Below are positions 1,639-20,172 of a stretch of DNA of 32,000 nucleotides, one piece after another (within the stretch, counting starts at the first letter, position 1; each line of letters opens with the position of its first letter). The position numbers and the translations under genes are program-made. This stretch comes from Thermodesulfobacteriota bacterium (GTDB lineage: Bacteria > Desulfobacterota > WTBG01 > CAIYCZ01 > CAIRTM01): positions 6,917 to 38,916 of the forward strand of contig JANQGV010000250.1 in the NCBI GenBank assembly GCA_028282925.1. Reading direction: 5' to 3'. The notes below the pieces were generated by a model. It did no database searches, was not told the DNA's origin, and saw nothing but the letters and a program-made list of their open reading frames with translations.

Positions 1639-4600
1639 TTATTCCCTGTAATGCAGTATCATGCCGTGGCTTCCGGCAATCCAGATGTTTTGCGGTGTTA
1701 TAAAAAACAGATCAAAGAGGCTGCTGTCCCCGCCCTTATTCTGTTGTATCCAGGTGGCGCCGCCGTCGGTGGTCTTTAAGATTTTGCCGGGATCCTGTAT
1801 CGCCCATCCATTGCTGGTATCGAGAAAATACAGATCATTCAGGATGCCGCCATATATATCGGTTTCAATGTGAGTCCAGGTGGCGCCGCCATCGGTGGTG
1901 TGCAGCATCTTACCGCCTGAGCCCGATGCCCAGCCGGTGCTGCCGTCCAGGAAAAAAAGCCGGGTCAGCCGGTAGGAGTCCGACCAGTGGTTGGCAACGT
2001 TCTCGAATTGCACCTCCCAGGTGGTGCCGCCATCGGATGTATGCATGATTTTCGTTATGGAGCCGTCTCCGATTTTCTTAAAATCCGACCCCACAAGCCA
2101 GCCTGTTGCATTGTCGGTAAAGAAGAGGTGCCTGGGTTCAATGGTTTCATATTCCACGAACGGGTCATACGGTTCGGATGAATCAATACCGATGGGGTCT
2201 TCCAGTACTTTGGTCCAGGTGGTGCCGCCATCGATGGTTTTGAGTACGGCATTTTCCTTTGTTGCCATCCATCCGTTTTGAGCATCGACAAAAGTCATTG
2301 ACCTGATGTAATGTTCCTGGTTGTACTGCTCTTCCCATGTCACCCCGCCGTCTGTGGTATGCAGTACGGAATCGGGAGCTCCTACCATCCAGCCGGAATT
2401 ATCATCGATAAAAGTGAGGTGCCTGAAGTTGTCATAGTCTCCCTCAACCTCAAGGTTTTCCCAGGAACAGCCGCCGTCGGTGGTGTGGAGCAGCGTTTTT
2501 TCGCCGCCGATAAAGCCGGTGTTTTCATTGATAAACCATGTTGAATAAAAATGTTTTGATGATAGGGTGGTGTATAACGACTGCCAGTTTTTTCCGCCGT
2601 CGGTGGTACGCAGGTTGGCGGCACTGCTGCTGCCGGCGGTCCAGCCGTGCTGCGGGTCGATGAAGAACACATCATGCAGAAATTGTTTGTACAGGTCCGA
2701 TGTGCCGTCAAGCCAGGTATTACCCCCGTCGGTGGTGTACAGCAGGGTGCCCCAGTTCCCAACAGCGCAGCCGGTTTGTGTATCGGCAAAGAACACTTTT
2801 TCAAGAACCGACTGCTTGCCGTCGTCCTGTTTTTCCCAGGTGGTGCCGCCGTCCGAGGTGTGGAGGATAAATCCCCTGAAGCCGTATGACGGGTGGATGG
2901 TCTTGCCGACAGCCCAGCCGTTTGAACTGTCGACAAAATGTATGCTGTTGATGTTGTCGTCCAGATCGCCGATATACAGCAGGTTCCAGGTGTTTCCGCC
3001 GTCGGTGGTCTGGAATACACCCTGTCCGTCGCCGGCGGCCCAGCCGGTCTGGGTGTCGATAAAAGAGATACAGTTTATATCGGTATCAAAATCGGTGATG
3101 TTCTGCTCGGTCCAGGTGCTGCCGCCGTCGGTTGTATGAAAAAGCTGATTGTACGAAACCAGCAGCCAGCCGTTGTTCTGGTCGGGAAAAGCCATCTGGA
3201 GCACGGTGTTGTATACGCCGAAGGACTGTTCTTCCCAGGTGGTGCCGCCGTCGGTGGTATGATAAATGAATCCGCTGGGGCCGCCGATCCAGCCATGCAG
3301 CGCATCGGCAAAGTAAACGCTGTTCAGCGAAAGATGTGTATCCATTTGGATGAGCTCCCAGGTAGTGCCCCCATCGGTGGTGTGGGACACAACCCCGGAC
3401 GTGCCGACTTTCCAGCCGTTGAGGGTGTCGGTAAAGAATATGCTGTTATATGTATACCCATCGGGATACGGGTTATGCCAGTGTAAGCCGGTTTTGGTTT
3501 CATCCGGACAGGGTATACTGGTTGTGGTTGATGGGGATTCAGAAGTGGTTGTTGTTGTTTCGGGCGGCGCTGTGGTTGTGGTGGATGCCGGTTGGGTAGT
3601 AGTGGTAGTGGATTCGGCACTCGTTGTAGACGTGGTTGCCTCTGCAGTGGTTGTAGACGTAGTTTCGGCCGGAACCGTGGTTGGGGTGGTCTGGTTGTCT
3701 CCGGTTGTTGCCGTAAGGGTTACGGTAAAACCGATATCCTGATGGCCGGGCTCGGCGGCCAGCTTGAATGATGTTACCAGCTCGGCTATGGTATTGATTT
3801 TTGACGGATGCAAGGTGAATGCCACGCCGCTTGTCATGTCAAAATCAATAACAAACTGCCATGAATTACCCAGTATGGCACTTTCAGTCAGTTGCACAGG
3901 GTCATGGCCCTGTGCCAACTCGGCCGAAAACGATGGGATTACCTGGTTGCCGAGGCCGTCGGGGGTGCCTGTGTAATCGGCTATGTCGTCATTCTGGATC
4001 GGGTCTGCCGGGCGGCTGGTATGGATGCATCCTTCGGTCTCGGTACACCATTTGAAATCTTCGTCAAGAGAGCGCCGGTACAAAACATCACCCTTTTGCA
4101 GCTCGGTGTCGTCCACATCGCCGTATACGGTCCGTATAACATGGGTTCCGGCAATATCGGCATGGACCGCCGCCTCTTCAAGGGTAAAGGTGGTGTCTAC
4201 ATAGCCGAACAGTATCTCAACCGCCCGCACATAGGCATTATCGTCGGACGGATAGGGAGATCCTTCGCAGCACTGGATAGATCCTTCAATATCCAGCTGT
4301 GTATATAAATCAAAATCAAGCAGTTCACTCTGTTTAAAGGATGTGGTGGGAGAGGGGTCAATTACATCCCCGATAATGGGTCCCAGGCTGTAGCCTGTGT
4401 CCATGCCGACCATAATTCCTGCATAATATACTTTGCCGAACACTGTGTCCGGGGTCATGCAGGCATCGTATTCGGCACAGTCCGCCGACAGTTCAGATGC
4501 AGCCAGCCTGAACTCGTACCCTTCGGGCATTTCGGCCAGGGTTGAGCTGACGAGTTTGGTTGAAACCGGAATTTTTTTGCCCCCGAACAGGTCGCATGAT

Positions 4601-17681: not shown

Positions 17682-17717
17682 AAAAAAAGCGGAGTCGATT
17701 GCGACTCCGCTTTTTTT
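17682..17717. terminator. bidirectional rho-independent terminator
   Basis: AAAAAAA-GCGGAGTCG-attg-CGACTCCGC-TTTTTTT. Confidence 0.8.
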
Positions 17718-17822
17718 ATCTGTAAAAAGGAGATGAGGGGGCGTAGTCGGCATTATGGTGCTCTACATACAATAGAGGGTGTATGCTATGACCGAGCAGC
17801 TTTTGTATATAAGGAGAATGCC

Positions 17823-18455
17823 ATGAGGAAATTTACTTCAGGATTTCTTGGTGTTTTTATAGCGGCACTTATTGCCGTAGGAATCTCACATGGCAGTGTG
17901 GTAACCGAGAACGGACGGACCTTTCTGGTTGACCGGACCGGGGAACGCATGGAAATTACCCAGGCCGTATCTTTGGGATTTACACCCGAAAACTTTCAAT
18001 TCGGGATCGGCAAAAACACCATTACGCCCCTTGATGACAGCCATTTGACGGAAACCGCGGGTAATGAGCCGCCGGATATGCGGGTCCTGGCGATAACAGG
18101 GAAAAAGGATGCTAAGGCCTTTTCCGTATCGCGGCTCAGGCGGCATGAAATCGCCAACAGCAGCCTGGATTCACAGCCGGTTGCTGCGGCCTACTGACCT
18201 CTCGTTGATTTAGCGGCTGTGTACAGCCGCCGGATTGACGGAAAAACCCTGACTCTTGCCCCTTCCGGCTGGACCTATGACTATACATTTGTCCTGTACG
18301 ACAAGGAGACGGGGAGTTTGTGGTATCCGTATGAAAAAGGACTTATGGGAATCCAGGGGGTGTATTTCAAGCAGTGGCTCAAGGTGCTGCCGTCAGAGGA
18401 TACGGTATTGAAAAAGTGGCAAAAGAAACATCCTGATACGCAACTGCTTCGATGA
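17823..18455 (+). CDS. DUF3179-family protein read through an in-frame TGA (18195-18197): candidate selenoprotein, or a nonsense-disrupted gene
   Basis: RBS AAGGAGaatgccATG and an N-terminal signal/anchor. ORFs 17733..18197 and 18219..18455 share one frame. The joined sequence ...RVLAITGKKDAKAFSVSRLRRHEIANSSLDSQPVAAAY[TGA]PLVDLAAVYSRRIDGKTLTLAPSGWTYDYTFVLYDKETGSLWYP...WQKKHPDTQLL follows the DUF3179 pattern (..AYP...L..HE..N......V.vtYCPLC.....Y.R..dG....F..SG......vmYD.eT.SlW....G...W..W...HPdt.vL). Confidence 0.6.
18213..18230 (+). other. SECIS-compatible hairpin downstream of the in-frame UGA
   Basis: GCGGCUG-UGUA-CAGCCGC is a perfect 7-bp stem that starts 15 nt after the UGA. The loop starts 22 nt after the UGA and has G as its second nucleotide. 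Confidence 0.4.
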
Positions 18456-18547
18456 TGAACGATGTGTTTAAGGGTGCACGATGTGCAGTTTGTATGGTAC
18501 AATCCTGAATTGAGTTGAAAATGACCCTGTTGTAAAGAGCATTTGCC

Positions 18548-19327
18548 ATGTGCGTACTGTTTTTTGCCTATGACCGTCATCCCGAATATCGGCTTATCCT
18601 TGTCTCCAACCGGGATGAGTTTTATAACCGGCCCACCGCCCCGCTTGCATACCGGGGACCTGGAGGGGATCTGCTCTACGGGGAAGACCTGGAAGGGGGC
18701 GGGACCTGGCTTGGCGTGAGCAAAACCGGACGATTTGCAGCCATCACCAATTTCAGGGGCGCCTATGCCGCCGGGGGGTTTTCAACGCCATCGCGTGGTC
18801 TGCTGGCGAGCCGGGGCCTGTCAAGCGACATGCCGGTTTCTGAATATCTTGCAGCGGTGTGCCGGGATGCCCACCTGTACAACGGCTTCAGCCTGCTTGC
18901 CGGGGACTCTGCATCACTGTACTACTTTACCAACCAGCAACAGGAAGTCCAAAAACTGCAGGGCGGGGTGTACGGGCTCAGTAATCATGTTGTGGACACC
19001 CCCTGGCCCAAGGTTGTGTCGGGGAAGAAGCGTTTCAACGAGGTGATATGCTCCGGGGGAGCACTTGAAACCGAAGCCCTGTTCAGCCTGATGCGGGATA
19101 CTTCCCGTCCTCCCGACGGTGAGTTGCCGGATACCGGCGTAGGGCCTGAGTGGGAGAGGATTCTGGCCCCCATTTTTATCGAAAGCTCCATCTACGGTAC
19201 GAGAACAACATCACTTGTATTGATCCGGCACAGCGGCGAGGTGCGGTTTCTCGAGCGGACCCATGCCCGGGGGAGTGCTGAGCGGGAAGAGACGCGGGAG
19301 CTTGGTTTCCGGACAGCTTTGCCATGA
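18548..19327 (+). CDS. NRDE-family (TANGO2/DUF833-like) protein
   Basis: The N-terminus MCVLFFAY (Met-Cys start), LILVSNRDEFYNRPT (the NRDE motif), GGTWLGVSKTGRFAAITNFR. Confidence 0.8.
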   Translation: MCVLFFAYDRHPEYRLILVSNRDEFYNRPTAPLAYRGPGGDLLYGEDLEGGGTWLGVSKTGRFAAITNFRGAYAAGGFSTPSRGLLASRGLSSDMPVSEYLAAVCRDAHLYNGFSLLAGDSASLYYFTNQQQEVQKLQGGVYGLSNHVVDTPWPKVVSGKKRFNEVICSGGALETEALFSLMRDTSRPPDGELPDTGVGPEWERILAPIFIESSIYGTRTTSLVLIRHSGEVRFLERTHARGSAEREETRELGFRTALP

Positions 19328-20172
19328 ACGAAAAACAGCGCAGTCTGATGGGGCTGCACCTTTCAGTTATCCTTTTCGGGGGAACAGCCCTTTTTGCCAA
19401 ACTGATACCGCTGCCGGCGGTAGACATTACCGCCATCCGCAGCTTTATCGCAGCAGGTGCGCTGTTTGTGCTGTTGCAGGCAACCGGAAAGCCGGTTCTG
19501 CTGGCCGGTGCAGGGCACTACTGCCTGATGTTGCTGCAGGGGTTGATTATGGGCCTGCACTGGATAACGTTCTTTCATTCCATGCAGGTTTCAAGCGTTG
19601 CCGTAGGCATGATTTCCCTGTATACCTATCCGATCATGACGGTTTTCATGGAACCTCTCTGGAAAGGACAGCGGCCGCATTCAGCCGATATGCTGTGCGG
19701 CGGCCTGGTGCTTGCCGGGGTCTGCCTGATGGTGCCCGATTTTTCTCTCAGTAATAATATTACCCAGGGGATCTGCTGGGGAGTGCTTTCGGCGTTCCTG
19801 TTCGCCCTGCGTAATGTGCTGCAGCGCCATTACCTGTCCCGTTACCGTGGGGATACCTCCATGTTTTATCAAACCCTTGTGGCCGGTCTTACCACCGTCT
19901 GGTTCCTCACGCCTGCCGCCGCATCAATCACCACGCCCACCTGGGTAAAAATCATCGTGCTGGCCCTCTGTTTTACCGCAGTGCCCCATAGCCTGTTTGC
20001 CGGCAGCCTGCGCCGGCTTAAGGCTAAATCGGCCGGGCTGATCGCCTGCCTGCAACCGGTATACGGTACTGTTTTTGCGCTGGCGGTGCTGCAGGAAGTG
20101 CCGGAGGGGATGACCGTTCTGGGGGGCGTGATTATTGTGTGTGCGGCGGCGGTGGAATCTTACCGGGCCTGA
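19324..20172 (+). CDS. DMT-superfamily (EamA-like) transporter
   Basis: Ten hydrophobic segments in a two-halves arrangement. The start overlaps the upstream stop (ATGA), which suggests translational coupling with the NRDE gene. Confidence 0.75.
   Translation: MNEKQRSLMGLHLSVILFGGTALFAKLIPLPAVDITAIRSFIAAGALFVLLQATGKPVLLAGAGHYCLMLLQGLIMGLHWITFFHSMQVSSVAVGMISLYTYPIMTVFMEPLWKGQRPHSADMLCGGLVLAGVCLMVPDFSLSNNITQGICWGVLSAFLFALRNVLQRHYLSRYRGDTSMFYQTLVAGLTTVWFLTPAAASITTPTWVKIIVLALCFTAVPHSLFAGSLRRLKAKSAGLIACLQPVYGTVFALAVLQEVPEGMTVLGGVIIVCAAAVESYRA

Follow-up and report, generated by a model that had tools for sequence, protein, structure and literature searches.

The best-characterised bacterial SECIS element is that of E. 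coli fdhF, a hairpin in the coding sequence directly 3′ of the Sec UGA, with GU in its apical loop, that doubles as the codons of conserved residues. The published bSECIS model specifies a loop of 3–9 nt, an upper stem of 4–16 bp, a G within the first two loop positions that is usually followed by G or U, a distance of 16–37 nt from the UGA to the loop, and a minimum free energy of ≤ −7.5 kcal/mol (PMC13188914). DUF3179 (PF11376) is a prokaryotic selenoprotein family with the motif UxxC/T (PMC9312934, PMC13188914), for which MBW1804167.1 and MDJ0986319.1 are cited as example accessions. Both reviews credit the DUF3179 selenoproteins to Zhang and Gladyshev 2007 (PMC1976440). By table order only, DUF3179 would correspond to OS_HP1 of that paper.

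The gene described here lies at 17823–18455 of the window, by which we mean the whole 32-kb stretch of DNA that was analysed. From its sequence and those of its relatives, it is very probably a real DUF3179 selenoprotein gene, in which Sec replaces the conserved Cys of the family. It belongs to the same Pfam family as the catalogued DUF3179 selenoproteins and, like them, has Sec at the first Cys of [YW]-C-P-L-C; deltaproteobacterial (Desulfobacteraceae-like) relatives and a stem-loop after the UGA are also shared. However, the motif of the window clade is U-P-L-V (in 75 of the 86 loci, with Q, A or M as the last residue elsewhere), with no second Cys, whereas that of the catalogued proteins, compared by motif, is UxxC/T. 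Furthermore, the clade consists of proteins of about 210 aa with one module and a predicted signal peptide, whereas canonical DUF3179 proteins have about 350 aa and are matched twice by the profile. The sequence-only reading had proposed a candidate new selenoprotein. The reading as a selenoprotein gene with a SECIS hairpin is strongly supported by the conserved TGA, the Cys homologues, and the selection described below, but the new family is not, since DUF3179 is already listed. On the sequence comparison, the short, exported, single-module U-P-L-V clade might constitute a branch of DUF3179 in its own right, one not yet described separately, although we are inclined to doubt it. The predominance of Sec in the clade, its lone selenol with no resolving Cys, and the lack of a Foldseek match in the PDB for the model of a Cys homologue would all be compatible with such a branch.

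Gene structure and reading frame

The features of the gene, all on the forward strand, are as follows.

17823..18455, + strand: complete putative selenoprotein gene, 210 codons, with Sec as codon 125 (translation, Pfam, and orthologue alignment)
17811..17816, + strand: ribosome-binding site AAGGAG, 6 nt 5′ of the ATG at 17823 (read from the sequence)
17823..17894, + strand: predicted N-terminal signal peptide MRKFTSGFLGVFIAALIAVGISHG (sequence and alignments)
18195..18197, + strand: in-frame TGA, probably read as Sec (the U of Y-U-P-L-V), aligned with the conserved Cys of the family
18200..18242, + strand: whole SECIS-like stem-loop, comprising lower stem, 1×1 internal loop, upper stem, and apical loop (folding and recoding test)
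18213..18230, + strand: upper stem GCGGCUG/CAGCCGC with loop UGUA, formed by the codons of A-A-V-Y-S-R and presumably the part bound by SelB
18453..18458, + strand: tandem TGA TGA, the true terminator of the gene (sequence)

The likely true start of the gene is the ATG at 17823, and the TGA at 18195–18197 is its only internal one. As first noticed, the called open reading frames 17733..18197 and 18219..18455 lie in one frame, with only this TGA and seven sense codons between them, and there is no ribosome-binding site upstream of the second piece, which begins at an in-frame GTG. The public databases hold only an N-terminal fragment of 124 aa (P0001), which is 100% identical to the window protein over the first 124 aa. 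Thus, the gene is wrongly annotated as a fragment.

Since ORF finders call a 78-aa piece from the GTG at 18219, it might be argued that translation stops at 18195 and restarts there, to give a DUF3179 protein split into two polypeptides. However, that GTG, which no ribosome-binding site precedes, is an invariant Val codon within the hairpin. The codons between the TGA and the GTG encode PLVDLAA, which is conserved as protein in all of the orthologues, unlike a non-translated spacer, and the Cys homologues are single chains. We consider a split gene extremely unlikely.

Upstream, between the gene for a 165-aa protein and the selenoprotein gene, there is a strong terminator-like hairpin at 17689–17717, GCGGAGTCG-ATTG-CGACTCCGC, that lies between an A-run and a T-run and so could act in both directions. 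It does not appear in the pattern-scan output. Its location in the intergenic gap suggests that the selenoprotein gene begins its own transcription unit.

Conservation of the TGA and of the frame downstream

A metagenome scan gave 253 relatives. Of 86 related loci, which represent at least five phyla, 85 have TGA at the Sec column, and the lone exception is a homologue with TGC. Seven of the loci come from metagenome-assembled genomes of Desulfobacteraceae, an unclassified deltaproteobacterium, Calditrichia, KSB1, Bacteroidota (two paralogues), and Krumholzibacteriia. In all seven, at 40–64% identity, this column holds TGA, and PLV(D/N/Q)LAAVYSR comes next. The orthologue check that had been suggested, whether this column holds TGA or Cys, gives TGA in nearly all of the related loci and Cys in homologues. 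The clade is Sec-dominant not only in the sampled loci but also in the protein databases, where more than 100 clusters break off at the UGA. Over 100 database "proteins", with a length of about 127 aa, stop exactly at ...AAY or ...GY, and so have been cut at the TGA.

The frame after the TGA stays open for 85–96 codons in all 75 complete loci. Its entropy at codon positions 1, 2, and 3 is 0.45, 0.33, and 1.48, respectively, and this concentration of variation in the third position indicates that the sequence 3′ of the TGA is translated in that frame. As judged from these alignments, the codon pattern shows both translation of the frame beyond the TGA and purifying selection on it.

These data bear on the simplest objection, that a Cys-type DUF3179 gene was truncated by a change of TGY to TGA, as a pseudogene or through a sequencing error, and that the hairpin is incidental. 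A one-base change gives the same local picture, as the first reading had cautioned, and public gene calls do treat the gene as the 124-aa fragment P0001. The caveat is refuted by conservation, since neither event would account for a TGA at the same column in several phyla, for a downstream frame that all of the loci keep intact and under purifying selection, or for the synonymous constraint on the hairpin codons. In addition, the identities of 40–64% exclude the orthologue set being one clonal contaminant. The probability of a pseudogene or an error is practically negligible.

Two of the loci contain second copies. In L001, a diverged paralogue at 2929–3786, directly 3′ of the orthologue, has its TGA at 3493 (VAVTY-U-PLAG) and a hairpin, GGCUGU-CGUGU-ACAGCC, whose loop of 5 nt has G as its second nucleotide. 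In L094, on one 304-kb contig, a Sec-form gene at 2132–2800, with its TGA after VAVAY, is in tandem with a Cys-form paralogue at 3001–3753 (CPLVNLTAVYSRQVY).

Cys homologues and the reading of TGA

When 1.84 billion representatives were searched with the profile, 7,383 relatives were obtained at E ≤ 1e-3. Among the representatives of the wider family, Cys occupies the Sec column in 122 of 148 first modules, and the commonest motif there is CPLC (64), followed by CPLA, CPLT, CPLS, and CPLV, which agrees with the conserved Cys of YCPL(C/T) given in the sequence-only reading. The short subfamily itself also has genuine Cys forms, with YCPLA, YCPLV, YCPLF, or HCYLA. Thus, the in-frame UGA and the Cys of the homologues form a Sec/Cys pair. 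A few short-form homologues have Gln at this column (P0066, P0067), and a few others have Ser, Asp, Glu, or Arg (P0163, P0168, P0171); on their sequences, these proteins may be inactive or function differently.

The UGA could also be read without selenium, either because TGA is reassigned (code 4 or 25, to Trp or Gly) or by near-cognate or Cys insertion, with the hairpin merely stimulatory. Several full-length database entries do have W at the Sec column (P0002–P0006, P0038, P0044, and P0051), and no Sec machinery is encoded within the 32-kb window. However, the DNA for P0003 (L012, 694–1284) has TGA, and translation with code 11 does not yield the database entry; its W is TGA translated under genetic code 4 by the gene caller. 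The other W entries are presumed to be the same artefact. Moreover, TGA terminates 5 of the 16 window genes checked, the DUF3179 gene included, while the other 15 have no internal TGA, and the tandem TGA TGA at the end of the DUF3179 gene indicates that TGA is an ordinary stop in the source genome. The homologues have Cys, not Trp, at the column, and the hairpin fits the geometry of a SelB-type SECIS. Decoding without selenium is thus very unlikely, and Sec insertion is the preferred reading.

The searches for decoding components were confined to the window. Its 18 annotated ORFs include no selA, selB, or selD, and no tRNA-Sec gene is present; a tRNA/tmRNA search and an Rfam search of the 32 kb returned no match. 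A scan of the window for other ORFs with TGA read-through found only frames that look non-coding. We infer that the source organism decodes Sec from its Desulfobacteraceae-like closest relatives, a group known to be rich in selenoproteins (PMC1976440), together with the conserved recoding signal.

The SECIS-like hairpin

The perfect 7-bp hairpin that had drawn attention to the locus is present as described, with arms GCGGCTG (18213–18219) and CAGCCGC (18224–18230) around the loop TGTA (18220–18223); the stem begins 15 nt, and the loop 22 nt, after the TGA. The 60-nt fold has a free energy of −23.2 kcal/mol, with z = −4.48 against 200 shuffles, none of which (0/200) folds as well. When the bSECIS constraints (PMC13188914, Fig. 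2 legend) were applied by hand to the window copy, the loop UGUA of 4 nt, with G at position 2 followed by U, the stem of 7 bp, the distance of 22 nt, and the folding energy were all within the limits, so that the copy agrees with the published model in all four constraints, as the sequence-only reading had proposed.

Like the fdhF element, the window hairpin is intragenic, lies directly 3′ of the UGA, has GU in its loop, and is built from codons of conserved residues, although there is no sequence similarity between the two. In orthologues outside the deltaproteobacterial clade (L003–L007 and L009), the 5′ arm has moved by 3 nt while the 3′ arm is unchanged. The resulting 7-nt loop, CCGUGUA, has its first G at position 3, which breaks the rule of a G in the first two loop positions. 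The GUGU core (GUGUAC) is invariant, also in these orthologues, and their effective SECIS may be a different or a larger one.

Selection on the hairpin

The codons of the hairpin core were counted across 76 unique sequences, with the rest of the same genes as background.

Val codon, hairpin core: GTG in 76/76; elsewhere in the genes about 25% GTG
Tyr codon, hairpin core: TAC in 75/76; elsewhere in the genes 42% TAC
Ser codon, hairpin core: AGY in 75/75, never TCN; elsewhere in the genes 28% AGY
Ala codon, hairpin core: GCT in 65/76; elsewhere in the genes 12% GCT

Changes in the arms are compensated. An Ala codon GCC is accompanied by an Arg codon NGG with a following C, without exception (14/14; 14/0/0/51, Fisher p = 1.6e-14, phylogeny uncorrected), and the stem is thereby rebuilt with one bulge. 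Thr ACG occurs with CGT in 4/4 cases, giving an A-U pair, and L094 has GACUG/CAGUC in place of GGCUG/CAGCC. Where GCC encodes Ala7, the 5′ arm is displaced by 3 nt, to (U/C)UG-GCU, and the loop has 7 nt. As for the suggested check of co-variation, the evidence for compensation comes from registers with a bulge or a shift; in a single fixed register, 83% of cells pair (21–44% in slid controls), but covariation does not exceed that of the shuffles.

Each peptide was also recoded with synonymous codons. Over all sequences, the observed mean folding energy is −14.2 kcal/mol, as compared with −8.6 kcal/mol after recoding (mean z = −1.68), and 46% of the sequences reach p ≤ 0.05, while a control coding stretch has z = +0.06. 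For the window copy, the values are −20.1 and −9.8 kcal/mol (z = −2.98, p = 0.01). For the 7-nt-loop clade (L003, L004, L009), the observed hairpin has no excess of stability over the recoded controls. In contrast to the Sec forms, the Cys-form loci have relaxed core codons, with Val as GTT in 2/5, Tyr as TAT, and Ser as TCC. The Ser itself follows the same pattern. The sequence-only reading had pointed to a Ser (AGC) at this position, which is otherwise more variable, and Ser is indeed found there in 75 of 76 Sec forms, as compared with 9 of 27 Cys forms, which have S, E, D, K, N, Q, or R.

These results must be weighed against the view that the conserved peptide L-A-A-V-Y-S-R alone gives rise to the hairpin, which would have no function as RNA, and that Sec, if it is inserted at all, depends on another signal. 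The peptide is conserved in the Cys forms too, and the Cys homologue in L009 retains the hairpin, so part of the structure may be a fossil or may simply reflect conservation of the peptide. The lack of fixed-register covariation above shuffles and the unremarkable stability in the 7-nt-loop clade also favour this view. However, a by-product of the peptide would not freeze the synonymous sites of the Sec forms against the codon preferences of the genes themselves while these sites are relaxed in the Cys forms, nor keep Ser nearly invariant in the Sec forms only, nor bring about compensating changes in the arms. We therefore regard a hairpin without RNA function as very unlikely. As measured by codon choice and recoding, the data show selection at the nucleotide level on the hairpin 15 nt 3′ of the UGA.

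Family and domain architecture

With Cys in place of the internal stop, the read-through gene was matched to DUF3179 (PF11376) with 96 bits, for a cut-off of 27 (E = 3.5e-27), so the family assignment made at first sight is correct. However, the match covers only positions 23–147 of the 292 in the profile. The window protein is therefore a single-module relative of DUF3179, with a conserved stretch of about 60 aa in front of the module, and does not have the full-length two-module architecture of the 292-position profile. No NCBIfam family matched the window protein. In the canonical proteins, of about 350 aa, the single-module profile finds two matching stretches, so that these proteins look like tandem duplications. 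Only their first module keeps CPLC, and the second usually has Asp at the column (P0158–P0304). In P0158 (1587 aa), there are six modules.

As the sequence-only reading had noted, the second Cys of CPLC is Val in the window protein, giving U-P-L-V. At +3, the loci have V (75), Q (6), A (3), or M (1), and Sec is the only invariant Cys-type residue in the alignment. This points to a lone selenol rather than a CxxC pair. The N-terminus of the window protein resembles a signal peptide; in the corresponding place, orthologues of other phyla carry a lipobox-like Cys.

AlphaFold gives a confident, mostly beta model for the Cys homologue P0008 (pLDDT 89.3, pTM 0.79), with an N-terminal helix at residues 3–19 followed by a linker of low confidence. 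Foldseek found no match to this model in the PDB (best E = 0.28), nor did a sequence search of the PDB find one, and our literature searches found no paper on the function of DUF3179. Our guess, from the Sec/Cys site and the export signal, is a periplasmic role in redox reactions or in chalcogen or metal handling.

Proposed mechanism and implications

We propose that SelB, carrying Sec-tRNA(Sec), would bind the apical stem-loop at 18213–18230 and deliver Sec to the UGA, where it would compete with release factor 2. The ribosome would then proceed for 85 codons past the UGA to the TGA TGA terminator. The product would be a single DUF3179 protein of 209 residues, exported by means of its N-terminal signal peptide. 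Its lone selenol, in U-P-L-V without a resolving Cys, might be used in a redox reaction or in a reaction that handles chalcogens or metals.

If this is correct, the SECIS has frozen part of the protein, since the Ser at +10 is (nearly) invariant only in the Sec forms, and the locus would be a clear case, provided by nature, of protein evolution under constraint from an RNA signal. Because the SECIS is itself encoded by a highly conserved peptide, it is a tidy case of mutual constraint between recoding signal and protein. There is also a practical side. Public gene calls split or mistranslate this gene, as the 124-aa fragment, the more than 100 similar ones, and the entries with W all illustrate, and the W at the column is an annotation artefact that hides selenoproteins. 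Reading the UGA as Sec would restore the complete exported protein and enlarge the selenoproteome of sulfate-reducer-like bacteria. The wider interest lies in a subfamily made up almost entirely of Sec forms, in several phyla; the window gene opens no new class of system.

Genomic neighbourhood

None of the neighbours of the gene in the window (a TANGO2-family protein, an EamA transporter, an MCP, the 165-aa protein, and a giant Ig-like protein) recurs beside the orthologues, and the most recurrent neighbour of the orthologues is found in only 9 of about 85 loci. An EamA transporter gene is located 3′ of the DUF3179 gene both in the window (18548–20172, after the TANGO2-family gene) and in L009 (3839–4753). 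These two EamA proteins have no detectable similarity at E ≤ 1e-5, so that their shared position is probably a coincidence.

The only recurrent neighbour of redox flavour is an ORF of 736 aa, next to the orthologue in 9 loci (L082, 3958–6165, and eight others). By eye, its sequence looks like a TVP38/DedA-like membrane domain fused to an FAD pyridine-nucleotide-disulfide oxidoreductase. The tandem pair of Sec-form and Cys-form genes in L094 adjoins a ferredoxin/pyridine-nucleotide-disulfide oxidoreductase gene.
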